NCBI GenBank assembly: GCA_963758695.1
Contig: CAVWWM010000025.1
Location: 937 to 64,936 of the forward strand
DNA from: an uncultured Actinomycetes bacterium
Lineage (GTDB): Bacteria; Actinomycetota; Acidimicrobiia; Spongiisociales; DATADW01
DNA length: 64,000 nt
Reading direction: 5' to 3'
The number at the start of each line of letters is the position of its first letter. The stretch's first letter is position 1. Of this stretch, positions 2,092-51,099 are shown piece by piece. The notes beneath the pieces are model-generated. The model saw only the letters and a program-made list of their open reading frames with translations. It was not told the DNA's origin and did not search any database. A program made the translations under genes and the position numbers.

Positions 2092-2289
2092 CTGTAGCCC
2101 GTTGACAGGGGCGTACCCCGCTCCGGCGCCTGTCTGCTGCGGCTCGCATCTTCAGTCATTTCGGCTCCTCCGAGAGCACACGCAGATTAAGCCCGGTTCA
2201 TCTCTCGGACCCTTCAAGCCGTTTCGATCCGATGCCGATAGATCGACCAAGGGTGGGATCGAGTCGTATCAATTGAATGGAGCAGGGGA

Positions 2290-8265: not shown

Positions 8266-8488
8266 CCGAAGACGGAGGACGGAAGCAATTCTCTCTGTCC
8301 CCCCGCAGGGGGGAAGGGACCCGCCGCGGAGCAGCGGGTAGGGGGGAATGGTTCACTCCCAGGGGCGCCGATCGCGCCTGTCGCACCTTTGAACGTGAGC
8401 CTTTCCCCCCTCCCCCGACGCCTCCGGCGTCGGGTACTCCCCCCGCCGGGGGAGAGAGTCGTTGCTGCCGTCTGCCGTCTGCCGTCCT
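8266..8488. repeat. composite palindromic intergenic element, full copy
   Basis: Order: degenerate GACGGNN heptamers 8268..8286, module B (reverse) 8298..8346, centre 8347..8403, module A 8404..8454, (CTGCCGT)x3 8465..8485. It lies between convergent stops at 8265 and 8493. The same modules recur at 8 other loci. Confidence 0.85.
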
Positions 8489-8492
8489 CGGC

Positions 8493-9311: not shown

Positions 9312-9363
9312 GAGGGCCCGGAGTGTATCGTGGCCGCCTTCGTCGATCCGGGGAGTAGGGACC

Positions 9364-11115
9364 ATGCGCAGGATCGGTTGGGCGTTGGCGTTGATGCTGG
9401 TAGCGGCGGCATGCACCGGCTCGGGGACCGGCGAGACGACCGGTTCGGAGAGCACGGTCGCGACGCCGACCGAGACCACTGCCGCAGCCACCGAGACCAC
9501 TCCCGGGGACACCGAGACGACGACCGACGTCACGGAGACCACGGTGGCAGCCACGGCGACCACTGCCGCCGAAGGCGAGGCGCAACAGGGCGGCAGCCTT
9601 CAGTTGGTGGCACTCAACGACCTGGCCTCGCTCGACAACAGCCAGGCGGTGTCCACCATCGACTACGACATGACGGCCGGCGCTCTTTATGAGGGTCTGT
9701 ACCACTTCAACTCGGCAGGCGAGTTGGAGACGGGGTTAGCCACCGGGCCCCCCGAGATCTCCGACGATGGGCTCGTCTACACGTTCACAATCGAGGAAGG
9801 TGCCATGTTCGCCGGTCCCGACTTCGAGCCACGGGCGGTGACCGCCGACGACGTCGCCTACGGGATGATCCGGGCGCTCGACCCCAACACGGTTCCAGCT
9901 CAGTCCTGGGGTGCGGGCTATTTGTTCCCCATCGAGGGCGCAGAGGCCTTTGCCAATGGCGAGGCCGATGAGGTGTCGGGGATCGAAGTGATCGACGACC
10001 AGACGCTCCAGGTGACGCTCGCCGCCCCAACCACCACGTTCATCTTCGGTCTCACCATTGCCACCAGTTGGCCGGTGCCCCAGGAGGCGGTCGAGGACCG
10101 TGGCGAGGACTTTGCCAGCCAACCGGTGGGAGCCGGCCCGTTCTACCTCCAGGAATGGAACCGCGGCTCGGACGTCACGATCGTGCGCAACCCCGGTTAC
10201 GTGGACCCCGATCTTCCCTACTTGGACGAGATCCGAATCGACCTCGGGGTGGACGAAAACACCCAGGTACTCCGTCTCGAGAACGGAGAGGCAGACGGCG
10301 TGTTCGAGCAGTTCTCGCTGTCGCCCCAGGCAATAAGGCAACTCGAGCAGAGCGACGCCATCACCATCTCCGAGTCGGTCGGACCGCGCATCTTCTACCT
10401 GGCATTGAACAACGACGGGATCTTCGGCTCCAAGGAACTGCGGATGGCGGTGGCGCATGCGCTCAACAAGGACTTCATCGCCCAGTTCGGTGATCTGGCC
10501 AAGCCATGGAACCAGCTGATGTCGTCGACCACCGCCCAGTCCGATCCGGAGGGGACGACGGTATACGAGCACGACCCGGCGGAGGCAGCCCGGCTGGTGG
10601 AGGAGTCCGACTACGACGGGACTCCAGTCAAGATCGTCTACGACGTCTCCGACCCGTACACCTCGGCCAACTCGACCTCGCTGGCGCAGGACCTCGAGGC
10701 GGCCGGCTTCACGGTTGACCTCCAGGGGTTACAGCAGACCGAGTTCTTCACCGCGATCTACGACCCGGCGCTGTACGACATCTCGTCGACCTACTGGAGC
10801 GCCGACTACCCCGACGCCCAGGACTACATCTCGACGAACTTCATCTGCGGCACCATCGACATCCTCAACATCTCCCGCTTCTGCGACGAGTCGATCGACG
10901 AGGAGTTCTTCGCCACCGAGTCGATGGAGTTCGGCCCGGAGCGTGATGCCGCCCTGCTCGACGTGCAGCAGCGGCTCATCGACGAGGTCGCCGGGGTTCC
11001 GGTGATGGAGGTGACGCCCCGGGTACTCCAGGGTGCCGGGGTTGGCGAGATCCCCACGTTGGCCACCTATGCACCTTTCGACTGGAAGCGTGCCTGGGTC
11101 CAAGCCGAAGGCTGA
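9364..11115 (+). CDS. ABC transporter substrate-binding lipoprotein, peptide/nickel (family 5) type
   Basis: Lipobox MRRIGWALALMLVAAAC, a Thr/Glu-rich linker, then a ~520-aa family-5 SBP-like body. It is followed by the cognate ATPase and permeases. Confidence 0.8.
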   Translation: MRRIGWALALMLVAAACTGSGTGETTGSESTVATPTETTAAATETTPGDTETTTDVTETTVAATATTAAEGEAQQGGSLQLVALNDLASLDNSQAVSTIDYDMTAGALYEGLYHFNSAGELETGLATGPPEISDDGLVYTFTIEEGAMFAGPDFEPRAVTADDVAYGMIRALDPNTVPAQSWGAGYLFPIEGAEAFANGEADEVSGIEVIDDQTLQVTLAAPTTTFIFGLTIATSWPVPQEAVEDRGEDFASQPVGAGPFYLQEWNRGSDVTIVRNPGYVDPDLPYLDEIRIDLGVDENTQVLRLENGEADGVFEQFSLSPQAIRQLEQSDAITISESVGPRIFYLALNNDGIFGSKELRMAVAHALNKDFIAQFGDLAKPWNQLMSSTTAQSDPEGTTVYEHDPAEAARLVEESDYDGTPVKIVYDVSDPYTSANSTSLAQDLEAAGFTVDLQGLQQTEFFTAIYDPALYDISSTYWSADYPDAQDYISTNFICGTIDILNISRFCDESIDEEFFATESMEFGPERDAALLDVQQRLIDEVAGVPVMEVTPRVLQGAGVGEIPTLATYAPFDWKRAWVQAEG

Positions 11116-18405: not shown

Positions 18406-19533
18406 TCATGCTTCCTCCCCCCCGGAGTTGCCGCCATACCAGAGCAGGGTCCGACGCAGCCCCTCCTCGAGACCGACCTTGGGGTCGAACCCGAGGTGGG
18501 TGCGGGCCTTGGTGATGTCGGGACTGCGCCGATTGGGGTTGTCGATGAGGTATTCCTTCTCGGGGCTCTCCCCGAGGACGACCTTCCCCTGGTATCCGAA
18601 GAGCTCGCGGCCCAGCCTGGCCACGGACTCGGCCAGATCAGCCATCGAGGTCTCAGGTCCATCGATACCGACGTTGTATGGCTCGCCGGACCCGCCCTTC
18701 CCGAGTACCAGGAAGTAGCCGGTGACGGCGTCGGCCACGTAGCAGAAGGTCCTGGTCGGCGATCCATCGGAGTAGAGGACCAGGTCATGCCCGGCGATCA
18801 TGTTGCGCGCCAGGTCGGCGATCACCCGGCCGTCGGTGATCTTCATCCCCGGCCCGTAGTTGTTGAAGGGCCGTGCCACCGCTACCGGGAGCCCGTGCTG
18901 CTGGGCGAAGTTGACGCATAGCGTCTCGCCGTAGCGCTTCGACTCGTCGTAACAGGCGCGGGGACCGGTACAGGAGACGTACCCCCGATAAGTCTCCGGA
19001 GTGGGGATGGCCTCAGCCACTGGGTCGCCGTAGATCTCAGAAGATGAGAAGAAGAGGAAGCCTCGCACCGGGGTCCCCGCCGCAGTCTGCGCCACCGCCT
19101 TGTCGAGCAGGTTGCGCAGCCCGTTGATGTTGGCATCCATGGTTTCGATCGGGTGCGCCCGGTAGTAGGTGGGCGAGGCGACGCCGGCGGCATGGATGAC
19201 CCACTCGAAATCCCCCATGTCTTCGGGAAGCGGGAGACGCATGTCGTGGGTGCGCAACTCCAAACCGTCGCGACCCTCGAGCTCGCCAAGCCAGCTGGGG
19301 ACACCGCGGAAGTAGTTGTCGAACACCGTCACCGAGATGGGGGCCTTGTCGGGGTTGGCGGCGTTCCAGGCGAGCGGCGCCTGGACCATGTAGTAGCCGA
19401 GGAAACCGGCGCCCCCGGTGATGAGGAGCCGCTCCCCCGACATCGCCGAGAAGACTTCGTCGAGGTCGGCGCCCATCATCGCCAGATCGGCGGAGACGAC
19501 TTCGGATGCCTTATCGGTGGCAGCAAGGGTCAT
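18406..19533 (-). CDS. NAD-dependent epimerase/dehydratase, UDP-glucuronate decarboxylase (UXS/ArnA-C)-like
   Basis: LLITGGAGFLG, SSSEIYGDP, PRACYDESKRYGETLC (close to the UXS CYDEGKRVAE block). ATGA overlap with the upstream LmbE gene. Confidence 0.75.
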   Translation of the reverse strand: MTLAATDKASEVVSADLAMMGADLDEVFSAMSGERLLITGGAGFLGYYMVQAPLAWNAANPDKAPISVTVFDNYFRGVPSWLGELEGRDGLELRTHDMRLPLPEDMGDFEWVIHAAGVASPTYYRAHPIETMDANINGLRNLLDKAVAQTAAGTPVRGFLFFSSSEIYGDPVAEAIPTPETYRGYVSCTGPRACYDESKRYGETLCVNFAQQHGLPVAVARPFNNYGPGMKITDGRVIADLARNMIAGHDLVLYSDGSPTRTFCYVADAVTGYFLVLGKGGSGEPYNVGIDGPETSMADLAESVARLGRELFGYQGKVVLGESPEKEYLIDNPNRRSPDITKARTHLGFDPKVGLEEGLRRTLLWYGGNSGGEEA

Positions 19534-20183
19534 AGCAACACCATCTTCATGCAGTGGAAGGCTTCTGCCATCCCGGAGGGAGCGCGGCTCTCGATCCCAC
19601 GCAACCGGAGCAACGCCCTGAAGGTTTCCTCGGTGAACCACTCACGCCGCTTCTGGCTGGGGAACCCGTCGATGATCCCCGCCAACTTCCCCTCGGCATG
19701 CCGCTCCTCGAGATGGACATACACAGAAGGCCGGCCGAGGTCGCCGTCGAACTTGGGGATCTCGTACTCGAGCACCAATTGGTCGCGGAAGGTGTTGCCA
19801 ACGAGTTCGGAGACGGTGCGGTGGTCCTGGTGGGCGTCGCCACGCCAGGGGCACAGCACCAGATCGGGCTCGATCCCCCGGCCGAGTTCGTCGAACCACT
19901 CCTTGAGTTCCGGCTGGTGGGGGAAGTAGCGCTCGCGGAAGTTCTCCACCCGGACCCGGGTGACACCGGCACCTGCCAGAAACCTCTCGGCACTGGCCGT
20001 CGCCTCGTCGGACCGTTCGCCGGGGGCGGTGAGGACCACCCAGTCGACCTCGATGCCGGGGCACGACTCGACAAGTTGCAGCACCGTCCCACCGCAGCCG
20101 ATCTCGATGTCGTCACTGTGAGCTCCGAGACAGAGCACCCGCCGGATCTGGGCGCCGAGCGGCGCCGCCCCAACCTTCAACAC
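19530..20183 (-). CDS. PIG-L/LmbE family deacetylase
   Basis: VLCLGAHSDDIEIGCGGT and a later HQDH motif, both typical of LmbE-like zinc deacetylases. Confidence 0.8.
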   Translation of the reverse strand: MLKVGAAPLGAQIRRVLCLGAHSDDIEIGCGGTVLQLVESCPGIEVDWVVLTAPGERSDEATASAERFLAGAGVTRVRVENFRERYFPHQPELKEWFDELGRGIEPDLVLCPWRGDAHQDHRTVSELVGNTFRDQLVLEYEIPKFDGDLGRPSVYVHLEERHAEGKLAGIIDGFPSQKRREWFTEETFRALLRLRGIESRAPSGMAEAFHCMKMVLL

Positions 20184-20190
20184 CTGGAGC

Positions 20191-20987
20191 TCAACTCGGC
20201 TCGGAGGACGGTTGCTTCCAGACCTCCCAGGGGGCGTCCCCCGCTCCGTAGCCCTCTTCGAGCGCTTGGCGGTCCTTGAAGGTGTCCATCGCCGTCCAGA
20301 AGCCGCGATAGCGGTGCGCCCACAGCTTGCGCTCAGCGATGAGTCGCTGGAACGGCTCGAACACGAGATCCTCGCCCTCGTGGAGGTGCTTGAAGATCTC
20401 CTTGCGAAACACGAAGTACCCGCCGTTGACCCAGAGGTCGGACTCGCTCAGCGGATCGATCGACCTCACCTCTCCGTTCTCTCCGATGTCAGTCACATGG
20501 AACGACTGGGTGGAATGGACGGCGAGGAACCCGGCAACCTTGTCGGGTTGAGCGAGGAAAGTGTCGACATAAGCGCCCAGGTCGAGATCGGTCAGCCCGT
20601 CGGAATAGTTGGCCAGGAAGACCTCCTCCTCGTCGAGGTAGGGCTCCACCGCCTTGAGCCGCTCGCCGATGCTCGAGCTGATCCCTGTCTCGGCGAAGGT
20701 GATCTTCCATTCGTCGATGTCGCGGCTCAGCAACTGGATGTCGTGCCCCCCTCAGACAGGACAAAGTCGTTGGAGACCCACTCGCGGTAGTCGAGGAAGT
20801 ACTCCTTGATCACCTGGCTCTTGTAACCGAGGCACAAGATGAACTCGGTGTGCCCGAAGTGGGCGTAATACCTCATCAGATGCCAGAGGATTGGCCGCGG
20901 GCCGATGGGCACCATCGGCTTGGGGACGGCATCGGAGTACTCGCGCAGCCTTGTACCCAACCCCCCACAGAAAAGGACAACCTTCAT
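20191..20987 (-). pseudogene. rfbF: glucose-1-phosphate cytidylyltransferase, one frameshift in a C6/G6 run at 20746..20751
   Basis: N-terminal ORF: MKVVLFCGGLGTRLREYSDAVPKPMVPIGPRPILWHLM. C-terminal ORF 20191..20733 continues HDIQLLSRDIDEWKITFAETG...WVNGGYFVF...GFWTAMDTFKD in another frame. Confidence 0.8.
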
Positions 20988-21124
20988 CCCGCCCTCCTTG
21001 GGACGCTCCCCGCCGTTGGCACGCACTTCACCTGGCAGGTCTGCGGCGCGCCTGATCTACACGTTCTCATCGGCCCGAGCCCACCCGATCTGAAGCGAAA
21101 CGACCACACCCGGTGGGACTGCCG

Positions 21125-21334: not shown

Positions 21335-22264
21335 TCAGCGCTCGGCATCCGCTTCGAGCAGACGGTGGAGTGCCGTTGTTTCCGGGGCGTACATATCCTC
21401 GAGCAGTCGACGGTGCTCTTCGGGGATGGCGTCGGGACGCTGGCGCCCCACCACGTCAGCACCGCCGCCTACCCCCCGGTCGATGACCGACCCTGCGGGG
21501 AACTGTCCCCAATCGGCGGGGACCGAGACCCCGAGGTGGGTGAGCACCCGGGTCAAGAGTTCGAGCGGGCGATCCCGGATCTCGTCGTTGGAGACGACGA
21601 GCAGCCGCTCGGAGGGGTACTCGGCCCGCCACCGCTCGATCATCCCGGTGAAGTCGACATTGCTCCGGGTCGAGGTGCGACCGAAGAACTCGCGGTACTC
21701 CTCGGAGGGGACGTCAGACGGTTCCCGCGCCTGCTCCCTAGCGAGCTTCATTACGGCGTGCGACCACACCGTGTCGACCGGATCACGGACGACGAGGATC
21801 AGCCGGGCATCGGGCAGGAGCCGCCGCACCGCCGCCACCCGCTTCGGAGGAAGCAACGAGTACGCGGGAGTTATCTCGCCCCTGACCTTCCCGGCTCCGG
21901 CGGCGAAGTGCCCTGCGTACCAGTGGGGCGACTTGTGCCAGCGGCCGTCGAAGTAGTGGACCTCCTTCACATCGGGGAGGTACAGCTCTGGATGGGCCCG
22001 CAGGTTGTGGTGGAGCCATGTGGTCCCGGTCTTGGCAGCACCGATCCCGAGGAAGTCGGGCAGGTTGGCCGGGGGCTGTATCCATCCTCTGGCCATGGCC
22101 CACCGGATCGCATCAGAGGGGACGATCTCGGTGCGCTGCAACGAACGCAACGCCCTCTTGGCCCACGCTCCGCCCGGCACCTGCGACCAGCGGACCGTAC
22201 CTTTCGGCGGCCGGGCCGCCGCCTCGAGAGATCGCCGGGTAGACCCCAGGTCAGGCTCGGTCAC
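21335..22264 (-). CDS. sulfotransferase family protein
   Basis: 5'-PSB-like loop GIGAAKTGTTWL and 3'-PB-like LILVVRDPVDTVWS. GTGA overlap with the carrier-protein stop. Confidence 0.75.
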   Translation of the reverse strand: MTEPDLGSTRRSLEAAARPPKGTVRWSQVPGGAWAKRALRSLQRTEIVPSDAIRWAMARGWIQPPANLPDFLGIGAAKTGTTWLHHNLRAHPELYLPDVKEVHYFDGRWHKSPHWYAGHFAAGAGKVRGEITPAYSLLPPKRVAAVRRLLPDARLILVVRDPVDTVWSHAVMKLAREQAREPSDVPSEEYREFFGRTSTRSNVDFTGMIERWRAEYPSERLLVVSNDEIRDRPLELLTRVLTHLGVSVPADWGQFPAGSVIDRGVGGGADVVGRQRPDAIPEEHRRLLEDMYAPETTALHRLLEADAER

Positions 22265-22497
22265 CGGCGTTCCTCGACCAGGCGGGCTATGCCGGCAACA
22301 TTCTCGAAGTGCGAGAGGTCGACATCATCGGCGTTGATCTCGACACCGAACTCCTCTTCGAGGAACCCGATGAGTGTGAGCACCCCCATCGAGTCGATGA
22401 TCTCGGACGTGATCAGCGACGTGTCGTCGTCGATCTCCGACCCGGGCGCGAGCTCTTCGGAGATGTAACGGCGGATCGTCTGAGCAGTCGAGGTCAT
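22261..22497 (-). CDS. acyl/peptidyl carrier protein (DltC-like, 78 aa)
   Basis: Phosphopantetheine-site block SEIIDSMGVLTLIGFLEEEFGVEI, small acidic protein, first gene of the minus-strand operon. Confidence 0.75.
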   Translation of the reverse strand: MTSTAQTIRRYISEELAPGSEIDDDTSLITSEIIDSMGVLTLIGFLEEEFGVEINADDVDLSHFENVAGIARLVEERR

Positions 22498-22705
22498 GAG
22501 CTTTCCACGAAGGGGTTCGGTCGCGCGGTGTTGGCGCCGTGGCGGGGTCGATGGTACCGGGGCATGTCCCCATCGTTCGCACTGCAGTATCGACCCGCGG
22601 TGGCCGATATTTGAGCTGACACCGGGGCACGACTCGGTCGTCCGTACACTCCTGCGACCCGCCGCGGCCCTTTGGGCGAAGAGCGCGGCACCGAGGTAGA
22701 ACGTC

Positions 22706-23608
22706 ATGTTGGAGGTGAGGTCGATAGAGACGACCATGCTCGAGGAGGATGGCTCCCGGGCCGAGGCCTGTTTCGTCGAGACCGACCGGGGGGCCCTGTT
22801 CATGGTCACGCACCTACCCGCCGGACCGGCGCAGGGTGCAGTGGTCGTGTGCAGCCCGATCCAATCCGAATTGCTCAAGAACAACCGCCGCGAGGTGATG
22901 CTCGCCCGCCGTCTCGCCAGTCAAGGCTTGGCGGTGGCCCGCTTCCACTACATCGGCACCGGGAACAGCGACGGCGAGGTCAGCGACGTCACCATCGACG
23001 GCATGGCTGAGGACACTGCCGCGGTCGCCACCGCCCTTGCCGCCGACACCGACCGGATCGGGTTCGTCGCCACCAGGCTCGGCTCGCTGGCTGCGTCCCG
23101 CGTCGCATCTGGGCTACCCGGTTCGCCCCTCGCCTTCTGGGAGCCGGTGGTCTCGGGTCGCGGTTACCTCAAGGAGTTGATGCGTGTCAGGCTGATGGTT
23201 GGGATGCGACAGGGGACCGACGGGAGCAAGGCACCACCGGTGACCGACGAGATCGCAGACCAGCTCGCCCGGACGGGCTCGTTCGCGGTGATGGGATTCT
23301 CCATCGGAGGCGGACTCAAGGAAGACCTCGAACGAAGCGATCTCAGGATCGAGCAGCCCGCCGACCATGACGTGCTCGTTGTCCAGTTCGGTCAGCGTGC
23401 TGGGATACGCCGCGAACTCCGAGCGCTCGCCACGGATCTCGAACAACGAGGGGGCGCTCCAACGGTCGAGCAGGTGCCTTTTGACGAGGCCTGGTGGCTC
23501 CATGTCGATGTGGATGCGCTCACCCCCGAACGCGAGCTTGCTATGAACACCGATGTCGTCGGCCGCACCGAGCGGTGGCTGACCAGCGCTCTCGGGGTGG
23601 TCGTATGA
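22706..23608 (+). CDS. atypical alpha/beta-fold protein, type A copy 1 (Arg at the nucleophile-elbow position)
   Basis: VVVCSPIQSELLKNNRREVMLARRLASQGLAVARFHYIGTGNSDG; elbow-like FVATRLGS; WEPVVSGRGYL. Paralog of 24531..25406. Confidence 0.8.
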   Translation: MLEVRSIETTMLEEDGSRAEACFVETDRGALFMVTHLPAGPAQGAVVVCSPIQSELLKNNRREVMLARRLASQGLAVARFHYIGTGNSDGEVSDVTIDGMAEDTAAVATALAADTDRIGFVATRLGSLAASRVASGLPGSPLAFWEPVVSGRGYLKELMRVRLMVGMRQGTDGSKAPPVTDEIADQLARTGSFAVMGFSIGGGLKEDLERSDLRIEQPADHDVLVVQFGQRAGIRRELRALATDLEQRGGAPTVEQVPFDEAWWLHVDVDALTPERELAMNTDVVGRTERWLTSALGVVV

Positions 23609-24534
23609 CAGGGGCACTGCTCTCCACCGGTGTGCGCGAACGCCCCGTCTTCTTTCCATCCGATGGGAACACCCTGTTCGGTGTGCTCACCGAACCGGAG
23701 GGACCCAGCAACGGGGTCGGTGTCCTCCTCATCCAGGGCGGCGACACCGTCAATGTCTCGCTGCACCGCAACCGGCTCGCCGTCAGGCTGGCACGCAGCC
23801 TCGCCGCCGATGGGTATACCTGCCTCCGCTTTGACTACCACGGTTTGGGGGAGAGCTCGGGTGACATCGGGGCCTTGCACCTCCACAACCCCTTCACCGA
23901 GGACGCCGAGGCAGCGGCCGAGGTGATGCACCAGCTCGGGATCGATGACCTAGTGCTGGTCGGCGCCTGTTTCAGCGCCCGGACAGCTCTATCGGCAGCG
24001 CCGCTCATCGACGGAGTTCGCGCCGTCGTGATGGCCACGCCACCTGTGGCCGGCTACGGGCGGGACGACGCCATGGCCGAGCGGCTGTCGCGGGAATGGT
24101 CGTGGTCTGATTATGTGAAGAGGGCTGCTCGCCTCGAGACTCTCGCCAACCTGGCTCGGCCGTCGCACCGCCAGGCATACAGCCGGTTCGCTCGCTCCAA
24201 GCTGCGTGGCACACGCCGCCCCGGAGGAGGCGACCCCACATTGCGTTGGGTTAGCCCGATGTTGCTCGATCCGCTCGACACCATGGTGAAGAGGGGCGTG
24301 CCCGTGCTGGTCGTGTTCGGTGACAAAGACCCACTTCTCGGCGAATGGCAGCGGGCGTCCACAGGACGACTCGGCTCCATATTGGATAGGGCAGGTGACC
24401 AGGTCGAAGTGATCGACGATCTGCCCGGCGTGGTTCACGGCTTCCTCGGGATCGATGTCCAGGACCGGTTCCTCGCACTGACGACCGATTGGATCAGGGC
24501 AAGGGTGCCCACCGCCGTTCGGGATGTTCAGTGA
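23605..24534 (+). CDS. atypical alpha/beta-fold protein, type B copy 1 (Cys at the nucleophile-elbow position)
   Basis: ATGA overlap with the upstream gene. LRFDYHGLGESSG; elbow LVGACFSARTAL; PVLVVFGDKDP. Paralog of 25403..26308. Confidence 0.8.
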   Translation: MTGALLSTGVRERPVFFPSDGNTLFGVLTEPEGPSNGVGVLLIQGGDTVNVSLHRNRLAVRLARSLAADGYTCLRFDYHGLGESSGDIGALHLHNPFTEDAEAAAEVMHQLGIDDLVLVGACFSARTALSAAPLIDGVRAVVMATPPVAGYGRDDAMAERLSREWSWSDYVKRAARLETLANLARPSHRQAYSRFARSKLRGTRRPGGGDPTLRWVSPMLLDPLDTMVKRGVPVLVVFGDKDPLLGEWQRASTGRLGSILDRAGDQVEVIDDLPGVVHGFLGIDVQDRFLALTTDWIRARVPTAVRDVQ

Positions 24535-25406
24535 AAATGGCGGCCGTGGCGCCGAGACCATGGCGAAGAGATCCGACAACCGACATCACCGAAGAGGCCG
24601 GCTACGACGGTGACCGGTTCTGGGTCTCGCACCAGCCAGAGCGCCCCCGCGTGGGGGTTCTGGTCTGCAGTCCGCTCCACGCCGAGATGCAGCGCAACTA
24701 CCGCCGCGAGGTGTTGCTGAGCCGCCGGTTGGCAAGCGCCGGCGCCGCAGTCGAGCGATTCCACTACCGCGGCATCGGCAACAGTTCCGGGGAGCCCAGT
24801 CGCCTCGCTCTGGACACGATGATCGAAGACGGGATCGCCGCCGTTCGCCACCTCCAGCAACGGGTAGGGGGCGTGCCGTTGGTTGTCCTCGGGACCAGGG
24901 TTGGAGGATTGGTCGCCGCCGCCGTGGCTGCAAAGGAGAAGGCCGTCGGTCTCGCCCTGTGGCAACCGCTGGTCAAGGGATCTGCCTACATGCGTGAGGC
25001 GGAGCGCTCCGCCATGGCGAGGGCCATCACACGAACCGGTGATGAGCGTCCGCCGCCACTCCGAGACGTGCTCGCCTCCCAGGGATCGGCCGATGTGCTC
25101 GGGGAAAGGGTTTACGCCGCGCTGAGCACCAGCCTGGAGACCGCCCAGCTGAGAACGCTCATCGGCGACGAGCCGCGACCCATCCTGCTGGCGCAGGCCG
25201 GCGGTCCAGACGGACTGCGCGGCGAGCTGGCACGTTTGGCCGACGACCTCTCCGGGAGCGGGTTCACCGTCACCGCCCGTCCCACCGGGGACGCAGAGGT
25301 CTGGTGGGCCAACCCCGGCGGCGACCTCTTCCGCGAGGAGGACCACAAGCCCCTCACCGTCGAGCTTCTTCGTATCACTTCCGAATGGTTGGAGACGTTG
25401 TCGTGA
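24531..25406 (+). CDS. atypical alpha/beta-fold protein, type A copy 2
   Basis: GTGA overlap (alternative ATG 24537). VLVCSPLHAEMQRNYRREVLLSRRLASAGAAVERFHYRGIGNSSG; elbow-like VLGTRVGG; WQPLVKGSAYM. Confidence 0.8.
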   Translation: MKMAAVAPRPWRRDPTTDITEEAGYDGDRFWVSHQPERPRVGVLVCSPLHAEMQRNYRREVLLSRRLASAGAAVERFHYRGIGNSSGEPSRLALDTMIEDGIAAVRHLQQRVGGVPLVVLGTRVGGLVAAAVAAKEKAVGLALWQPLVKGSAYMREAERSAMARAITRTGDERPPPLRDVLASQGSADVLGERVYAALSTSLETAQLRTLIGDEPRPILLAQAGGPDGLRGELARLADDLSGSGFTVTARPTGDAEVWWANPGGDLFREEDHKPLTVELLRITSEWLETLS

Positions 25407-26308
25407 TCGAGCAACCCTTTTTCGTCGATTCCGGCGGGGAGGATCTCTTCGGGGTGGTCGCCCTGCCGGATGAGCCTGCACGGACCGTCGCCACCCTGCT
25501 ACCCGCGGGCGGCTACACGTTCTCGCCGCAACGAAATGGGTGGGGCACCAGGCTCACCCGGAGTCTGGCGGACTCCGGTTTGGCCGCCGTCCGCTTCGAC
25601 TGGCACGGCATCGGGGACAGTTCGGGACGGGCGGGCAACTTCGCCCTCGACCAGCCTTTCGCAGATGACGCCTTGGCGATGGTGGAGATGGCCCGGTCGG
25701 AGGGCTGGGAGCGACAGGTCCTCGTGGGACATTGCTTCGGGGCCCGCACCGCCCTCGCCATCGCACCACAGGTACCAGGTCTCGTCGGAGTCGCCCTCGT
25801 TTCCCCGCCGGTCCGGGACCATGCCCGTGGCGAGGGCGGGGCCAACCGGCTCGCCTACGACCTTGGGACCGCCGGGTACCTGCGCACCGCGGCGGGCAAG
25901 TTGCGCTGGAGCGCGCTGTCCGACCCGGCCGAGCGACGGCGCTACCTGCGGCTTGCCCGCTCTTTTGTGAAGATTCGGTGGGGCGCCGCCAAGCGCCGGG
26001 TTCAACAGTTGCGTGGCAGCGGCGTCGATCCCGTGCCATGGGTCAGCAGGCCGATGCTCAATCAGTTGGCGTGGCTCGCCGACCACGGCATCCCGGTCCT
26101 CTTCGTCTACGGGGACGAGGAAAACGACTTCGCCGAGTTCGGCGAGGCGCGCCAGGGCCGGCTGGGTGAGATCCTCGAGAAGAACGCCGAGAAGATCCGC
26201 ATAGAGGTGGTTCCGGGCTCGGTCCACGGGATGGACCGCACCGACACCCAGGACCGCGTTAAAGAAGTCGTCACTGCCTGGGCTACGGAGATAGGCGATC
26301 TCAGTTGA
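25403..26308 (+). CDS. atypical alpha/beta-fold protein, type B copy 2
   Basis: GTGA overlap. VRFDWHGIGDSSG; elbow LVGHCFGARTAL; PVLFVYGDEEN. Confidence 0.8.
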   Translation: MIEQPFFVDSGGEDLFGVVALPDEPARTVATLLPAGGYTFSPQRNGWGTRLTRSLADSGLAAVRFDWHGIGDSSGRAGNFALDQPFADDALAMVEMARSEGWERQVLVGHCFGARTALAIAPQVPGLVGVALVSPPVRDHARGEGGANRLAYDLGTAGYLRTAAGKLRWSALSDPAERRRYLRLARSFVKIRWGAAKRRVQQLRGSGVDPVPWVSRPMLNQLAWLADHGIPVLFVYGDEENDFAEFGEARQGRLGEILEKNAEKIRIEVVPGSVHGMDRTDTQDRVKEVVTAWATEIGDLS

Positions 26309-26412: not shown

Positions 26413-27216
26413 CTAATTCTCCCGACGGAACAGCTCATACGCGGTGACGAACCTCTCGAGGAACTCGCCGCCTGCTTCGTCGAGCAGGCTTTCCCAACGA
26501 GGGTCGCCGCGGTAGCGGGTCACCTGCGAGACGTGGGCAGCGATCGCCGCTTCCTTTTGATCAAGCACCTCGGCCACCGGGACCGCCCAGGTGAACCCGG
26601 CGGTGGGCTCACCGGTCGCAGCGGCGGTGAGTGCCGTCTTCATCCGGCGGGCGAGCTTGCGCACCCCACCACGGCCGGTCACCGGGAGCGGGCCCCATGG
26701 CCAGTGCTGCCACCACCACACCGGGTACTCGACCACGGTGGCGTCGGAACCGACCGATGCGAGTGCTTGCCGAGCGATTCGATAGGCCGCCTCGTGGTCG
26801 GGATGGCCGTCGTCGGCCGCGGTGACGAACACCTCGGCGGGGCGGACCTCTTCGAGAATCGGGACTAGTTGGGCGACGGCAGCCGCTTCGTCCTGTCGCA
26901 GGGCGCCGTCGCGGAACCCGAGAAACCAGGCGCGGTGAGGGCCAACCCCGAGCTGGTCGAGCGATGCGATCTCCTCGCGGCCACGGAGAGCCGTCAACTC
27001 GGCGCGATCGATCAGGTCCCGATTGGCGAAGGCGCCGTCGGTGAGCACCGCCACGGCGACGTCGACGTCCAATCTCCTCTTACGGGCGATAGTCCCCCCG
27101 CACCCCAGAGTGTCGTCATCTGGGTGAGGCGCCACCACCAACGTGGTTCGCCGAAGTTGCTCATCGTCGGCCACCGACCATTCACGGGCAGCGCGCCGCC
27201 AGCGGCGGTCCCGCAC
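26413..27216 (-). CDS. PIG-L/LmbE family deacetylase (second copy)
   Basis: LVVAPHPDDDTLGCGGTI and HPDHEAAY motifs. Confidence 0.8.
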   Translation of the reverse strand: MRDRRWRRAAREWSVADDEQLRRTTLVVAPHPDDDTLGCGGTIARKRRLDVDVAVAVLTDGAFANRDLIDRAELTALRGREEIASLDQLGVGPHRAWFLGFRDGALRQDEAAAVAQLVPILEEVRPAEVFVTAADDGHPDHEAAYRIARQALASVGSDATVVEYPVWWWQHWPWGPLPVTGRGGVRKLARRMKTALTAAATGEPTAGFTWAVPVAEVLDQKEAAIAAHVSQVTRYRGDPRWESLLDEAGGEFLERFVTAYELFRREN

Positions 27217-27292: not shown

Positions 27293-28491
27293 TCAAGGGT
27301 CAGCGGCAGTGACCTTGTCCCAGTCGTACGCCTGTGCCAACTGCCTGCCTGCTTCGCCCATGCGGCGGGCAAGTTCCGGGTCGCGGCGGATCTGGAGGAT
27401 GGCATCGGCCAACTCGGCCGGATCTTCCGGCTCGATGAGGACGCCGCTGGTCCCGTCGGCTACGAGATACTCCTGGCCACCGACCCGAGTGGCGATCACG
27501 GGCCTCCCCGACGCCATGGCCTCCACAACCGTCATCCCGAAGGACTCACTCAGGGAAGGATTCACCAGAACCGACGCCGCGCCGTATCTGACAGGCAGAT
27601 CCTGGTAGGGAACCACGCCGGCCCAATCGACTCGGGACCGCAACCCAGCGGGGATCCTCTGCTCGAGTTGTGCCCGGTATGGGGGTCCCCCATACCATCT
27701 GCCGAGTTCTCGGACTCGGGGGTCGGTCGAACCACGGACGACCGCCTCGGCCGGGAGGACGCTGTGCGGCCCGACCAGTGTGAGCTTCATCCGGTCATCA
27801 TCAGCCGCCAGAGCCACCACCGCATCGATCAGGGTGTGGACACCCTTTTCCGGGGAGACCCTCCCCACGAACAGCACGTTGAAGTCATCGCCGTCGTGCC
27901 TATCGACAGCGGAGAAGGTGAGGGCATCGACGCCGTTGGGAATGGTGTGGATTCGCCCGCGTGCGCTGGGTGGGCGAGCCGAGCGCGCCGCGTCACATGG
28001 TCGCTGCAGGTGACCACGGCATCGACCGCCCGGACAGCCGGGGCGGTCTGTGCCGGGGAGAGGTCGGAGAGCCACTCGTTGTGGAGATGGAGCACGATCG
28101 GCACCCGCCGGTTGAGCGCCCTGATGACGCGGGCGAAGGGGAACTGGCTCTGGATGTGGACCAGATCTGGGCGGCGGCGCCGGATGTCGATCGCCGCCTG
28201 GATGGCGAACCCGAGGTGGGTCCGCAAAGAGGTGAGACGGGGGCGGCGCGGATCCCTGCTCGATGGCAGGAACCGCAGCATCCGGGAAAGGAGGTTGTCG
28301 GGAAGCGTCGCCAGCAGCCGGTAGTCGACACCGTGGTGGATCTGGCGGGTGGTGCCGGTCCGTTCCCCGCTGGCATAGACAGTCACTTCGTGGCCGGCTG
28401 CGACCATGCGGCGGGCAACCTCGCCACTCCAGATCCCTATCGAGACTGTCGGGGTCGGTGGGCGGGAAGCGGCGCCGGGTTGGTTGACCAT
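27293..28491 (-). pseudogene. GT4-family glycosyltransferase, one frameshift near ~27975
   Basis: The N-terminal half lies in the frame of ORF 27829..28920 (MVNQPG...VTVYASGE...IVLHLHNEW...VVTCSDHV). The C-terminal half lies in ORF 27293..28075 (RIHTIPNGVD...FVGRVSPEKG...NPSLSESFGMTVVEAMASGRPVIATRVGG). Confidence 0.75.
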
Positions 28492-28539
28492 GGCGATTCG
28501 GAGCGGCCGGCGGGCGCCTTCCCGGTACGCTCCCTCGCC

Positions 28540-29440
28540 GTGGGCGAGATCTTCGAAGCCCTTCTCCGACCCGAGATGTTCGCCGGGCTTGCCGCCGGTG
28601 TCATTGCCGCCGTCGCTTGCGCCGTGGCTGCCCTCATCTTGCGCCGCCGCCCGCTCCCGGTCGCTGGGCTGGCGATCGCTGCCGCCTTCCTCGCCGTCCT
28701 CCGCCCCCCCACCCCCGTGCTCATCGCCGTGGGCTTGCTGGCGGCGATCGGGATAGCCGGTGATCTTCGGCCCAGTCTGATCCCCTTGGCCGGTGCGCTG
28801 GCTATCGGACCGGCGACGCTGTTGGTCTTCTCCGGGGATGTCTTCGAGCCGTTGTGGGGTCGGATCGCCGGTGTGGCGGCCATATCGATTGGTGGAGGAC
28901 TCGCCGCCTGGTCGGAGCAACGGCGCCCTTCGAGCTGGGCCGGTCCGATACTGGCCGCGGGCAGCGCTCTCGGTGTGTTCATCGTGGTTCCCGACACCGA
29001 GCGTGCCCTCGTCCTCCTCGGTGCGGCGCTGCCGGTCGCGCTCCTCGGCTGGCCTTTGCGGCTGGCCAGGCTGGGAACGGGCGGCGTGCTCTCCTTTGTA
29101 GGTGTTCTGGTGTGGGTCGTGCTCCGCGACGGCGCCACCCGCGACTCGGCCATCGTTGGCGGGCTTGCCGCCCTCGGCGTGCTCGTCGCCGAACCGGTGG
29201 CTGTGCTGTTGGGTCGCCTGTTCTCGGGCGCTTGGTCCCCTCCGGTTTCCGATTGGCTCCTCGTTGCCACTGATGCCGTGGTCGTCCTTCTCGCCGGCCG
29301 GCTGGCCGGGACACTCGACTCGGCCGAGGATGCCGTGCTGGTCGCCGGACTCGTCCTGGCGGGAGCGGTGGCGCTGCTGACCGCGGCGGAGCTGCGCCGA
29401 CCCGAGCCGCGAGGAAGTTTCCGGTCACGGGCCCCGGTAG
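28540..29440 (+). CDS. polytopic membrane protein of unknown function; 3' end unresolved
   Basis: The hydrophobic, helix-rich segment of ORF 27961..29952 fills the gap between the GT4 start (28491) and the deacetylase stop (29425). Possible starts are GTG 28540 or ATG 28576. The in-frame stop is only at 29952, deep inside the convergent gene. TAG 29438..29440 is in the +1 frame, so a 3' indel is suspected. Confidence 0.4.
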
Positions 29441-30223
29441 CCCCGCACCAGACGCCTCACTCGGTCCTCGAGCCGAAGGCCACCAACCATTCGGCGCCGG
29501 AAGAAGGTGGTCCCATCGCTCAGCTGGACCGGTACCCGGTTGAGCAGCAGCGGGTCGGTTGCACCCGTCACCGCCTTTCCGCTCCCCAGCGTGGCCGTCT
29601 CGTATGCCGATCGGACCACCCGGTCGGCCTGCGGCGACCAGTAGCCCCACGGATAGGTGAAGTGCCTCGGCTCGACCCCGAGCCGATCTTGATCAGCCCG
29701 TTGGAACGGCGACCTCCTCGGCGATCTCGGCTCGTCGAGTCGAACGGAGATCGGGGTGGGATGGGTATGGGCGCCAATGGTCACCAGGCCCTGCTCGGCC
29801 ATCTCCCCCACCTGGTCCCAAGTCAGCGGCTCGGCGCGTCCGTCTCGCGTAGGGGCGTTCTGCGTTTCGATCGGCCCACTGGTGAGGTAGAGCGTGAAGG
29901 CGAGCCCTCTCTCCCGGAGAAGTGGAAAGGCGTGGTGGAGACGTCGGCGTAACCGTCGTCGAAGGTGAGCACGAACATCCGTGAAGAGCTCGGGAGGATC
30001 GCGAGGCAACCGCGGTCTCGAGATCGACGACCTCACCGTTCTCACCGAGCCAGTCGAGCTGGCGGCGGAAGTCCTCGATGGTGACCTCCATCTCCAGCCC
30101 GGTTCCGGCTCCAACCTGGTGATAGATGAGGATTCGCGGCCCACGCAGTGGCCCGAGGACCTTGTCGCCCACGGCCGCCGCAAGCTTCACCGCCTGTTTG
30201 GCGGCTCTCGCCGCCGCGCTCAT
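29425..30223 (-). pseudogene. polysaccharide deacetylase (NodB homology), frame broken >=3 times
   Basis: Blocks in different minus frames: ILIYHQVG...FRRQLDWL (ORF 29693..30412), VLTFDDGYADV (third frame), FPLLRERGLAFTLYLT...VTIGAHTH and HFTYPWGYW (ORF 29425..30183). ATGA overlap with the upstream PCP gene. Confidence 0.7.
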
Positions 30224-32931
30224 TCGGCGGCGAGAGCGGAGAGTTCGTCCCAGGACGAGGACGGGGCCGCCAGCAGCCCGAGCCGCTGCAGCGGGGCCAG
30301 GTTGGGCCGCATCCCCTCGCTCAGCTCGGGCGCCCAACCCTGGGGCTGGTTTCGGTCGCCCCGCCACGGATAACGGATCCGTGCCTCTGGGTCGTGCCCT
30401 TCGTACAGCCACCCGAGGGTGATGTCGAAGGTGCGCAGCTCCTTCACCTGCGAGTCCAACGCGTCCACCTCGTCGCTGCGTCCCGCCTGGACGGCGTTGC
30501 GCAACAGGCGGTTGAGCCCGTCAATCTGATTGTGGAGCATCCCGGTGCGGAGATCATCGAGGTGGTCGCGGGTGCACTGCACCGCCGGGACGAGAGCCTC
30601 GAATGTCCCGTCACGGCTCCGAACCTGCCACACATCGGGGTGCTGGTCTGTCTCTGCTACATGGCGGGTGAAGAAGCTTCGCCTCACCCAACCGTCGATC
30701 CCTTCGGCACCGTCCTGGGAACCGAGCACCGAGGCGAGCTCTCGATCGAGAGCGCGCTGGCTTGCCGGATCGAGGTCGTCGCCGAGCCGCTGGAGCACCA
30801 GTTCGCCGATCGTGGGGTGGTCCTTGATCTCGACCAAGGGGACGAATCCCTCCCGGGTCACCTGTGCAGCCGGTTCGCCGGTCTCGGTGCCGGCGCCGGT
30901 GAGTAGAGCGAGGACCTGGGCGTAAAGCTCATCCTCGAGTTTGCCCCGACCCACGTCGACCCCGTCGAGCACTTCGGCGAGCATCGGAGATGCTTCGCCG
31001 TCGACCTCGGTCGGCTCGGGCGTTGCCACCGGGGCCTCGAGCAGGCCCCGTGCCGAGGGCCGGGCTGCCGACGAGGTCGCCAGCGCACCGACGGGCTCCG
31101 GTGCCGGTTCAGGCATCGCGACCGGTGGTGCTACAGGTGCCGGCGTAGGTGCAGCCTTGGGGAGAGGTGGCGGCGACGGCTCGACGATGATCTCGGGGAG
31201 TGGGCGATCGCTCTTGGATCCCCGCCGCTTGAACAGCCCTCGCAGCCCACGTGCCTCCGGGTTGACCAGGGTTGCCCCGAGAACGCTCACTCCACGCGAC
31301 GACAGGTCGCGGTACATCTCTTCGACGGCAGAGGCCGTGCTGGTCCCTGGCCTTATGCACATGACGGTTTGGTCCACGTCGTAGAGCAATGTCTGGGTCG
31401 TCGGGTCGGCTACGGCACCGGCAGCGACCACGACAGCGTCGAACCGCTCCTGGGCTGCATCGATCAACTGCACCGCCCGTCTAGCGGCGACGGCATCGGC
31501 CGGATCATCGAGACCGATGCCGACAGGGATGGCGCGCAGCCCCGGCCCGGTCTCGGTCGATTCGGAGAGCACCCACTCGACGAACCCGGCGACAGCGGTG
31601 TTGTCGCGCGCCATCGGGTCGATCACATCGGAAAGACTGGGCCCCAGGCCCTCATACTCCGGAAGATCGGAGGGATGGGCGAAGTCACCGTCGATCAGCA
31701 GGACCCGCTGCCCTGCGGTTGCCAGGCTCATCGCATAGTCGGCTGCCACGGCGTGGGCGTCGCGCGAGCTGACGTCCATGCCGGTGAACCCGAGCGCCAG
31801 ATGACGCTGGCGGGCGCGGCCGTCGATGGCGGCGCGCAGTGCCTGCACAGCCTGCTTGCGCGGCGAGCGGCGCACGGTCTGGTACCAGGGGCGTGGCCCG
31901 CTGGAGATCGGAGTCCTGGACGGCACCTCACCCAATGCGGGCACGGCATCGAGGTCTCCGGTGGTCCACACCGGCCGGCGTATCCGGTCGGCGACGATGA
32001 GCACCGCCAGCCCGAGCAGCAGTCCGGCAACCGCACCGAGCAACCCGTTGATCAGCAGGTTGGCCGCTTGGGGCGTGACGTCCTCGGTGACCGCGGTCCC
32101 AAACGACTGCTCCCCCTCGGGACCAGCGGTCGCCAGAGCGGTGTGCTGATCGAGGACGGCCTGGAACTCCTCCTCGAGCAGTTGCTTCTGCACCTGCTCG
32201 GCAGACTGTGGCGCCTCGCCTTCGGCTGGCAGGGCCTCGAGTTCGGCTTGGAGGACCTCGAGCGCATCCTCAACCTCGGCGATCTCGGCGTCGACATCCT
32301 CGGCCGTCCGCTCCTCTTCCGCTTGCGGGTTCTGGGTCGGGCCGAGGATGTCCTCCACCCTGAGTCCACTGAGCCTGTCCTCGAGGGCATCGATCGATTC
32401 CTGAATCTGCTCCCGATCACCGACGACCTCGGGGTCCTCTGCCAACTGGGCATCGATCCCCTCTATCTCGGCCCTGATCTCCTCGAGGCGTTCCTGCAGC
32501 GCGTCCAATTCCTCTTGCTTCTCTTGCGCCGCCTGGGTCTCTTCGTCCCTACCCGCCTGCCGGTAGGCCCGGACCATGCCGTTCAACTCTTGAGTTGCGG
32601 TGTCCTGGTCGGGGGCGAAGACCTGGAAGGTGAGAGTGCCTTCCTGGGTGTCACCGGTGATGCTGGCGGCCCCACCGAGCCGGGCCAGCGTCTCCTCGTT
32701 GGCATCTTCCGAATCGATCTGGGCTGCCTCGACCGCCGAACTTAGCCCTTCGCCGGTGCGGTCCGCCTCGCCTTGGGTGAAGGTGATGGTCCGCGTCGCC
32801 TGGAACACGGGTTGGATGGCGTCGTTGCGCCGTGACGTGATGACGACCGCTGGGATGGCGCCGAGCGCCGCCACCATGACAAGGACCCACCACCGGGCCT
32901 TGATCAGTCGTCCTATACGTGTCAGGTCCAC
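30220..32931 (-). CDS. polysaccharide co-polymerase (Wzz-like, 2 TM + acidic coiled coil) fused to a degenerate BY-kinase/ParA-like domain and a ~300-aa C-terminal domain of unknown function
   Basis: TM1 WWVLVMVAALGAIPAVVI. Long Glu/Gln-rich heptad-like stretch. TM2 LLGAVAGLLLGLAVLIV. VLLIDGDFAHPS (Walker A'-like) is present but no GxxxxGK[ST]. A Pro-rich linker precedes the novel C-terminal region. Confidence 0.7.
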   Translation of the reverse strand: MDLTRIGRLIKARWWVLVMVAALGAIPAVVITSRRNDAIQPVFQATRTITFTQGEADRTGEGLSSAVEAAQIDSEDANEETLARLGGAASITGDTQEGTLTFQVFAPDQDTATQELNGMVRAYRQAGRDEETQAAQEKQEELDALQERLEEIRAEIEGIDAQLAEDPEVVGDREQIQESIDALEDRLSGLRVEDILGPTQNPQAEEERTAEDVDAEIAEVEDALEVLQAELEALPAEGEAPQSAEQVQKQLLEEEFQAVLDQHTALATAGPEGEQSFGTAVTEDVTPQAANLLINGLLGAVAGLLLGLAVLIVADRIRRPVWTTGDLDAVPALGEVPSRTPISSGPRPWYQTVRRSPRKQAVQALRAAIDGRARQRHLALGFTGMDVSSRDAHAVAADYAMSLATAGQRVLLIDGDFAHPSDLPEYEGLGPSLSDVIDPMARDNTAVAGFVEWVLSESTETGPGLRAIPVGIGLDDPADAVAARRAVQLIDAAQERFDAVVVAAGAVADPTTQTLLYDVDQTVMCIRPGTSTASAVEEMYRDLSSRGVSVLGATLVNPEARGLRGLFKRRGSKSDRPLPEIIVEPSPPPLPKAAPTPAPVAPPVAMPEPAPEPVGALATSSAARPSARGLLEAPVATPEPTEVDGEASPMLAEVLDGVDVGRGKLEDELYAQVLALLTGAGTETGEPAAQVTREGFVPLVEIKDHPTIGELVLQRLGDDLDPASQRALDRELASVLGSQDGAEGIDGWVRRSFFTRHVAETDQHPDVWQVRSRDGTFEALVPAVQCTRDHLDDLRTGMLHNQIDGLNRLLRNAVQAGRSDEVDALDSQVKELRTFDITLGWLYEGHDPEARIRYPWRGDRNQPQGWAPELSEGMRPNLAPLQRLGLLAAPSSSWDELSALAAE

Positions 32932-48454: not shown

Positions 48455-48552
48455 CGCCGGGTGGGCTTCCTCATGGGCGCCGGGATGCTAGGCGACCCGA
48501 TGCCTTCGCACCCGAGAGCACAATGTCCGGCACATGGCGAGGAGGAGACACC

Positions 48553-51025: not shown

Positions 51026-51099
51026 CTGCTCCCGTCTCCATGGCCCTGGAACCTTGAGTATAACGTCAAAGTTTGAGTGCCCACTCAAGGATTGAGGCG

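Follow-up and report, generated by a model that had tools for sequence, protein, structure and literature searches.

Organization of the gene set

We have studied a group of genes in a stretch of 64,000 nucleotides from an uncultured bacterium (assembly GCA_963758695.1, contig CAVWWM010000025.1, positions 937 to 64,936 of the forward strand); the whole stretch will be called the window. Its central feature is a series of four consecutive genes on the plus strand, which code for alpha/beta-fold proteins of two types, A and B, and which face a small carrier protein. The genes are A1 (22706..23608), B1 (23605..24534), A2 (24531..25406) and B2 (25403..26308). The stop and start codons of neighbouring genes overlap by 4 nt: ATGA at the A1/B1 junction, GTGA at B1/A2 and A2/B2. 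Alternative starts are possible for A2 (an ATG at 24537) and for B2 (an ATG at 25385), so that both starts are uncertain. In the annotated frames the G+C content at third codon positions (GC3) is 0.77–0.82, a coding signal for the four genes. A preliminary description, made from the sequence alone, had reported four coupled genes in the order A-B-A-B. Coordinates and overlaps confirm it: the arrangement is real. The host was thought to be actinobacterial and indeed is an uncultured member of Acidimicrobiia; B1 is found with 98% identity in the locus of two metagenome-assembled genomes (MAGs).

The first and third genes are paralogues, as are the second and fourth. A1 and A2 have 36% identity over 271 aligned amino acids (E 6e-42), B1 and B2 have 39% over 294 (E 7e-61); at the DNA level the similarity between the copies is nearly lost. 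The motifs quoted earlier for both pairs of paralogues are present, except that B2 has V as the first letter of "LRFD". The likeness of type A to type B is limited to the N-terminal 100 amino acids or so, with 31–34% identity. No signal sequence is seen by eye at the N-terminus of any of the four proteins, and their hydropathy maxima are at the level expected for core strands and helices.

A divergent intergenic region of 208 bp (22498..22705) separates A1 from the gene of the carrier protein, which has 78 amino acids (22261..22497, minus strand) and is the first gene of a minus-strand operon. A promoter scan found no sigma-70-like site in this region, nor is there any Rfam match; terminator-like sites are not more frequent than in shuffled sequence. 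The protein is recognized as a carrier by the PP-binding model PF00550 (36.0 bits, cut-off 20.8), with Ser36 as attachment site in the motif I-D-S-M-G. It had been called DltC-like: its nature as a carrier stands, but the DltC model gives only 22.2 bits, with a cut-off of 68. The best NCBIfam match is ACP_for_OlsHI with 56.9 bits, which does not reach the cut-off of 130. We have rejected a role of this acyl carrier protein (ACP) as DltC or as part of the OlsH/OlsI ornithine-lipid pathway, as it scores under both cut-offs. A homologue search started from it gave near-identical relatives only.

The stop codon of the carrier protein overlaps (GTGA) the GTG start of the next gene, a sulfotransferase which uses 3'-phosphoadenosine-5'-phosphosulfate (21335..22264, minus strand; PF13469 62.5 bits, PF00685 43 bits), which indicates translational coupling. 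The preliminary description was thus right in placing a carrier protein across about 210 bp at the head of a sulfotransferase/nucleotide-sugar operon. The closest solved relatives of the sulfotransferase are the heparan sulfate glucosamine 3-O- and N-sulfotransferases (E 1.7e-12). A sulfotransferase-thioesterase module for olefin formation, like that of CurM, was also considered and rejected: the sulfotransferase resembles the heparan sulfate glucosamine enzymes instead, the CurM thioesterase is the structural match of rank 37 (TM 0.51), and the arginine of type A described below is invariant even in loci without a sulfotransferase.

Family assignment and fold

Types A and B had been likened to hydrolase 2 and hydrolase 1 of exosortase A loci, and a comparison with hidden Markov models (HMMs) agrees with it. 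A1 (95.0 bits) and A2 (79.1 bits) both have TIGR03101 (hydrolase 2, exosortase A-associated) as their best family; for B1 (72.0 bits) and B2 (54.6 bits) it is TIGR03100 (hydrolase 1, exosortase A-associated). As the curated cut-offs of the two families are much higher, 202.75 and 168.45 bits respectively, the proteins in the window are distant relatives and do not belong to them. Pfam finds generic abhydrolase families only: B1 matches PF00561 and PF12697, and for A1 there is almost nothing. The hydrolase 1/2 pair is catalogued as HMM families, and no functional study or function assignment was found in our searches of the literature, where one paper cites TIGR03100, only as a predicted hydrolase; the earlier remark that its biochemistry is uncharacterised appears to hold.

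The structural models (pLDDT 93.6 for A1 and 88.8 for B1) both have a canonical alpha/beta hydrolase core, with a strand-elbow-helix at the position of the nucleophile. B1 has in addition a helical cap at residues 153–229. In A1 the elbow lies between the strand 118–123 and the helix 126–134, exactly where Arg124 is found. Foldseek gives a probability of 1.00 to feruloyl esterases, TTL lipase and PET46; the matches of A1 are generic esterases with TM about 0.6–0.7. Searches with profiles against PDB sequences, like those with Foldseek, give generic esterases and lipases only, aligned mainly over the N-terminal half.

Active-site signatures

The two types differ at the nucleophile elbow. In type B it has a cysteine in all relatives (92 of 92), within the motif G-x-C-x-G/S, and both the aspartate and the histidine of the triad are kept in 85 of the 92. 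B1 has the elbow G-A-C-F-S (Cys122), with Asp242 and His278; B2 has G-H-C-F-G (Cys111) and His275, with Glu240 at the acid position. In type A the same position is occupied by an arginine in 138 of 140 relatives, within the motif G-T-R-x-G. The elbows are A-T-R-L-G in A1 (Arg124) and G-T-R-V-G in A2 (Arg123). A competent hydrolase has Ser, Cys or Asp as nucleophile together with His: type A has neither, and two tryptophans stand in for the histidine loop (W263-W264 in A1). Other positions are conserved in type A: Cys49 in the oxyanion loop (127 of 140), a helix with the pattern E...N..R, and Arg160. Each of the four proteins in the window retains the signature of its type.

This Arg/Cys signature is ancestral to the superfamily pair as a whole, since a bona fide exosortase-type pair, found in a Rubrivivax MAG (L072), has the same elbows: G-A-R-T-G in A and G-I-C-G-A in B. 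All scores of that locus are above cut-off (hydr2_PEP 271, hydr1_PEP 286 and ligase_PEP_1 773 bits). No description of the signature was found in our literature searches. The pair also illustrates well how a pseudoenzyme partner is conserved among proteins of the alpha/beta hydrolase fold. Plasmid p1 of Shinella zoogloeoides XJ20 (L086, 8143–9915) codes for a fused protein in which the N-terminal domain has a normal serine box, G-H-S-I-G, in place of the arginine elbow, and the C-terminal domain keeps the cysteine. This might be a transitional form of type A, or one that has reverted.

Distribution of the A-B pair

Genomes were scanned with an alignment of 13 B sequences, and the comparison covers 78 loci carrying B, from GTDB species representatives and metagenome contigs; they are designated by labels such as L004. 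In 63 of them A lies immediately upstream of B on the same strand; the other 15 consist mostly of truncated contigs and of loci in which A and B are fused. Fused proteins are known with either type in front: A-B (P0179, P0195, P0201, P0144) and B-A (P0145, P0160). A word-indexed search gave 97 clusters of type B homologues; for type A there are 218 representatives at E<=1e-30 and 2008 cluster representatives at E<=1e-10. The hosts are mostly uncultured Actinomycetota, with Armatimonadota, Rokubacteria, Acidobacteriaceae, Pirellulaceae, Polyangiales, Burkholderiales and others also present.

The carrier protein is part of this pattern. An ACP-like gene is found within 10 kb in 48 of the 78 loci; within the same distance there is an AMP-forming ligase in 34, a gene similar to acyl-CoA dehydrogenases in 25 and a sulfotransferase in 23. 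The divergent layout of ACP and A-B seen in the window is also found in L003, L004, L008–L012, L018 and L019. In other Acidimicrobiia the couple of ACP and sulfotransferase recurs beside A-B with about 52–53% identity: compared with L004, the carrier protein of the window has 53% identity to the sulfotransferase-linked ACP and the sulfotransferase 52% to its ACP-adjacent counterpart. Identity to the ligase-linked ACPs of L001 and L006 is about 36%. A set of genes never paired in related genomes, with a carrier protein never co-conserved, is not what we find, either in the pairing (63 of 78), in the ACP (48 of 78) or in the recurring sulfotransferase couple.

One Acidimicrobiia clade (L001, L002, L004, L014, L015, L020–L022, L025) has, divergent from A-B, a gene for a protein of about 400 amino acids with a weak SLH match only; this gene is absent from the window.

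Carrier-loading partners in other genomes

The enzymes which accompany the pair in other genomes point to amino acids. The ligases of L001, L004 and L006 pass the amino-acid adenylation model with 391–401 bits (cut-off 317), with TIGR03098 as second best. They keep F-D-L-S with Asp235, which binds the alpha-amino group, as well as F-A-G-E-V and N-L-Y-G-P-T-E-T-N-V-C, like the stand-alone adenylation domains of DltA type. A rough extraction of their Stachelhaus code gave D-L-x-?-L-A-L-V-C-K. The dehydrogenases found with them match best the L-prolyl-[PCP] dehydrogenases of RedW/PigA type; that of L006 has 421 bits against PigA, with a cut-off of 500.

Other loci have different loading enzymes. 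In a Pseudomonadota MAG (L075, 7973–11728) we find in a row an ACP, an amino acid–[ACP] ligase similar to aminoacyl-tRNA synthetases (440 bits, cut-off 357) and a fused A-B protein of 596 amino acids; in L070 the same ligase and an ACP are about 6 kb away from a fused A-B. Two MAGs of Acidobacteriaceae and Pirellulaceae (L071, L074) have nonribosomal peptide synthetase (NRPS) modules with condensation, adenylation and thiolation domains (C-A-T) but no thioesterase, immediately followed by A-B. Variovorax paradoxus VAI-C has, one after the other, NRPS (C-A-T-C-T, without thioesterase), phosphopantetheinyl transferase, A, B, Wza, Wzc and sugar transferase, with the elbows G-A-R-L-G in A and G-M-C-S-G in B. 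The fused protein of S. zoogloeoides belongs to an exopolysaccharide (EPS) cluster with asnB, an ACP and an adenylate-forming enzyme. The exosortase-type set of hydr2, hydr1 and ligase in Rubrivivax (L072, 6688–13080) adjoins SbnA/SbnB, the genes for the synthesis of L-2,3-diaminopropionate; no decarboxylase dependent on pyridoxal phosphate (PLP) was noted among the open reading frames (ORFs) examined in that locus. The common denominator of all these loci is a carrier-protein thioester with an amino-acid-derived cargo, often in a polysaccharide locus.

History of the doubling

Trees of A and B were constructed by neighbour-joining, without support values, and they are congruent. In both, the first pair of the window (A1, B1) falls with the first pair of L019 and with the sequences of L001 and L004, and the second (A2, B2) with the second L019 pair and the L004 pair next to the ligase. 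The identities agree: B1 has 55% to the first L019 copy and 28% to the second, B2 has 35% and 42% respectively, and 41% to the ligase-adjacent B of L004. For A1 the values are 40% and 30%, for A2 34.8% and 38.7%. Among the L019 and L004 copies A2 scores highest against the second A of L019; one copy of L035 is higher overall. L019, from the Acidimicrobiia SZUA-232, has on one side a sulfotransferase and an ACP and, in the divergent direction, the series A, B, two dehydrogenase-like genes, A, B, ligase and ACP. The window shares this layout but lacks both dehydrogenase-like genes, the ligase and a second ACP.

These trees and identities indicate that the A-B unit was duplicated as a unit at an early date; since then the functions of the two pairs have probably become different. 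The duplication of a two-gene unit proposed in the preliminary description is thus supported, but as an ancient event. A recent tandem duplication is rejected: the identity of the paralogues is only 36–39%, and other genomes contain separate orthologues of each. The doubling had also been considered a special feature; the pair is indeed doubled here, but doubling is recurrent, since at least two pairs are found in 11 of the 78 loci. An Actinomycetota MAG (L035, 5155–10951) has A-B-A-B-A-B in tandem, with paralogues 43–51% identical. As these paralogues cluster together, the triplication is an independent event.

MAGs of the lineage of the window have a third A-B pair on another contig (L056, L060, L063, L077, about 8300–10900), preceded by two divergently arranged ACPs. 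It lies in a glycan locus of the ABC-transporter type, with an ABC-transporter ATPase, a glycosyltransferase of family 4 (GT4), a sulfotransferase and a sugar C-methyltransferase.

Surroundings in the window

The four genes lie inside a glycan locus which spans from about 15.1 to 43.4 kb and contains UDP-glucose dehydrogenase, epimerases, a polysaccharide deacetylase, GT4 glycosyltransferases, a Polysacc_synt_2 dehydratase and a family-4 initiating transferase. On the minus strand, beyond the sulfotransferase, there are a cytidylyltransferase-like gene, a PIG-L deacetylase, an epimerase/dehydratase and UDP-glucose dehydrogenase. This PIG-L gene is at 19530–20183; another de-N-acetylase of the PIG-L family (26413..27216, minus strand; PF02585 99 bits) is convergent with B2 and is a possible supplier of free sugar amine.

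Pfam scans of about 40 ORFs, not every small one, found no exosortase, AMP-binding or decarboxylase domain. The genes expected around exosortase A (XrtA/PEP-CTERM), namely exosortase, ligase_PEP_1 and PLP decarboxylase, were not found in the window. It had been noted from the start that exosortase, ligase and decarboxylase are absent, and both the tblastn and the Pfam results are in agreement. Two acyl-CoA dehydrogenases (47333–48487 and 49361–51118) were considered as parts of the system and rejected, since their identity to the dehydrogenases linked to A-B clusters is only about 25% and their distance exceeds 21 kb.

Some neighbouring genes deserve a comment. The cytidylyltransferase-like gene (20191–21026, minus strand), similar to glucose-1-phosphate cytidylyltransferase (NTP_transferase), is split in two frames near 20727–20733. 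The same split is found in L008; in L009, L010 and L011 the halves are in one frame. It is either a shared frameshift or a homopolymer error of long reads. A GT4 gene (27293–28920, minus strand) is also split, with the Glyco_transf_4 part (27829–28920) and the Glycos_transf_1 part (27293–28075) in different frames; it is untidy in related MAGs too. A long ORF on the plus strand (27961–29952), with a very hydrophobic middle, a strong negative AT skew (-0.20) and no Pfam match, may code for a membrane protein of the glycan locus that has so far escaped recognition, such as a polymerase or a flippase. It is followed by an ORF of 903 amino acids (30220–32931, minus strand), in the position of a chain-length regulator or a tyrosine kinase, with no Pfam match at E<=1e-3. 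Far upstream, at 2242–8265 on the plus strand, there is a protein of 2008 amino acids with several PKD domains and a beta-propeller similar to glucose/sorbosone dehydrogenases; it is probably secreted or surface-located.

Proposed function and alternatives

We propose that A and B form a two-subunit enzyme which removes acyl or aminoacyl groups from phosphopantetheinyl carrier proteins, with the cargo ending on a sulfated glycan; we give this proposal as a whole an even chance. Its parts have different weights. That the pair works on carrier-protein thioesters is likely, while on transfer of the group to the glycan rather than its hydrolysis our judgment is evenly balanced. What has been shown is the fold with its residue signature, the conserved pairing and the fusions, the association with carrier proteins, with loaders which activate amino acids and with glycan genes, and the orthology of each pair. 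The A-B complex, the thioester substrate and the acceptor are all features which we infer.

The cysteine of B would attack the thioester of the carrier protein and form an acyl-S-enzyme, with the histidine and the aspartate or glutamate assisting. B would then pass the group to the acceptor by a ping-pong mechanism, by analogy with SyrC/CmaE and CloN2/CloN7. A would be a catalytically dead paralogue, kept equimolar with B through translational coupling; its invariant arginine and conserved pocket might bind an anionic feature, such as the phosphate of phosphopantetheine, a carboxylate or a sulfate, on substrate, carrier protein or acceptor. The cargo of the 78-residue ACP would end on a sugar of a sulfated cell-envelope glycan, where the nearby PIG-L deacetylases may expose an amine as acceptor. 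Two diverged pairs would allow two successive or parallel transfers. By analogy, pair 2 may shuttle groups from carrier to carrier, since it is orthologous to the pair beside the ligase and the first ACP in other Acidimicrobiia; pair 1 may transfer them from the sulfotransferase-linked ACP to the glycan, since it is orthologous to the pair beside that ACP. Such a division of labour is speculative. The preliminary description had suggested a carrier-dependent module of glycan acylation or transfer. Its dependence on a carrier is supported by the ACP linkage in 48 of the 78 loci, but other loci suggest an amino-acid-derived cargo and not a generic acylation, and the glycan step is deduced from context.

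Several observations weigh against the proposed transferase. The chief weakness is that the loader is missing in the lineage of the window: tblastn with three ligases and the ligase similar to aminoacyl-tRNA synthetases gave no match in the 64 kb, no ACP loader is found within 10 kb of the orthologous loci L008–L012, and no ligase within 10 kb of the third A-B locus of the lineage. An ACP within 10 kb is not seen in 30 of the 78 loci, some of which are on short contigs. B occasionally occurs without a neighbouring A, as the solo B in L004. Finally, the structure searches give generic esterases only, so that the pair may instead be hydrolytic.

Hydrolysis is the essence of one alternative, a free-standing thioesterase of type II or of the releasing kind, which would edit mis-loaded carriers or free the acid with no transfer to a glycan. 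B has the fold of the alpha/beta hydrolases with a complete triad, A-B occupies the place of a terminal thioesterase after NRPS modules which lack one, and the nearest solved structures are esterases; the CurM thioesterase comes only at rank 37. However, simple hydrolytic thioesterases do not usually have a cysteine nucleophile with an obligatory inactive partner, the module occurs within glycan and EPS loci of several phyla, and two to three diverged pairs with two carrier proteins per cluster are hard to explain by editing. We consider this alternative unlikely. Much less probable is that the four proteins are ordinary esterases or deacylases which trim O-acyl groups of the glycan, next to an ACP by coincidence. 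The generic esterase and lipase families found by Pfam and in the PDB would suit it, as would the deacetylases already present in the locus and the lack of an ACP loader nearby. It leaves unexplained why type A is strongly conserved with neither nucleophile nor histidine, why an ACP is found in 48 of the 78 loci, with a widespread linkage to ligases, to ligases similar to aminoacyl-tRNA synthetases or to NRPS, and why the couple of ACP and sulfotransferase is co-conserved with A-B at about 52–53% identity; nor does any of the four have an N-terminal signal sequence recognizable by eye.

Type B might also be a synthase which polymerises carrier-bound monomers to a polyester or polyamide, A being an accessory subunit similar to PhaE or PhaR. 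The polyhydroxyalkanoate (PHA) synthase PhaC uses a Cys-His-Asp triad, which is also found in type B; the pair is heteromeric, and enzymes which activate amino acids or hydroxy acids are its partners in other loci. Against such a synthase, no PHA synthase appears among the PDB sequence matches (E<=0.01) or the top 50 structural matches, B has only about 300 amino acids and lacks the long N-terminal domain of PhaC, and the context is one of glycan biosynthesis. It is the least probable of the alternatives, and we give it very little credit.

The two-subunit transferase could be extended beyond this lineage. The Arg/Cys pair would then be a widespread, unrecognised enzyme coupling NRPS-like carrier chemistry to surface polysaccharides, decorated with amino acids, oxidised amino acids (pyrrolyl) or short peptides; in the lineage of the window the cargo or the acceptor would also be sulfated by the ACP-coupled sulfotransferase, and the arginine would recognise an anionic substrate. 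The phyla concerned would be Actinomycetota, Proteobacteria, Acidobacteriota, Planctomycetota and others. We offer this extension only tentatively.

Comparison with known systems

The TIGR03101/TIGR03100 pair of exosortase A loci, which are hypothetical equivalogs, shares with the window the order of A followed by B, the arginine elbow in A and the cysteine elbow in B; the ligases which accompany A-B elsewhere have TIGR03098 as second best model. The scores in the window are less than half of the curated cut-offs, the host belongs to Acidimicrobiia instead of Proteobacteria, and there are two pairs, opposite an ACP which is coupled to a sulfotransferase. The Arg/Cys pair is in fact far commoner than the exosortase context and is repeatedly wired to enzymes which load amino acids and to carrier proteins. 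This signature and its wiring are of more value than the doubling, which is less special than it looked. The pair offers a concrete, testable mechanism with a fixed active-site signature, and culturable bacteria carry the module on sequenced replicons: V. paradoxus VAI-C and S. zoogloeoides XJ20.

The Dlt system has a small dedicated carrier which delivers an amino acid to a cell-envelope glycopolymer, and the ligases linked to A-B in other loci score 277–288 bits on DltA models, with F-D-L-S and F-x-G-E-V in common. The window has no homologue of DltB, a membrane-bound O-acyltransferase, or of DltD, and the transfer enzymes have another fold. If carrier-bound groups derived from amino acids are moved to exopolysaccharides, this would be a route of glycan decoration distinct from Dlt and from the membrane O-acyltransferases, which could help to explain why non-sugar substituents occur in the EPS of bacteria from soil and sludge. 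An acyltransferase with the alpha/beta-hydrolase fold is known in OlsI, the O-acyltransferase of planctomycete ornithine-lipid synthesis (PMC12493201), and the best NCBIfam model of the carrier protein in the window is tied to that pathway. A and B match no OlsI-related model at E<=1, and no GH3-like OlsH was found in the window by tblastn with the ligase queries or by the Pfam scans made.

SyrC and CmaE have an alpha/beta fold with an active-site cysteine in a G-x-C-x-G box, and CouN7 has an active-site serine. The cysteine box of type B appears to resemble that of SyrC and CmaE. These two proteins are free-standing aminoacyl shuttles between carrier proteins, described together with CouN7 (PMC8748450); CysB is also an aminoacyl shuttle between carriers (PMC7966384). 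SyrC, CmaE and CysB differ from A-B in that they are single proteins without an inactive partner of the arginine type, and they belong to NRPS natural-product lines, not to glycan loci.

The closest worked-out analogy appears to be the biosynthesis of clorobiocin and coumermycin. Pyrrolyl-S-carrier protein is made there from proline: CloN4 activates it, CloN5 carries it and CloN3 oxidises it; CloN2 moves the pyrrolyl group to a second carrier, CloN1, and CloN7 then to the 3'-OH of the sugar (PMC11218499). In that case the group is accepted by a small antibiotic molecule instead of a polymer, no Arg/Cys pairing is known for CloN2 and CloN7, and the window holds only the second-carrier half of such a system. 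The clusters of L004 and L019 share with CloN1–N7 and CouN1–N7 the stand-alone adenylating enzyme, the carrier protein and the oxidase similar to acyl-CoA dehydrogenases, to which the antibiotic systems add the transfer to a second carrier and then the acyl transfer to a sugar hydroxyl.

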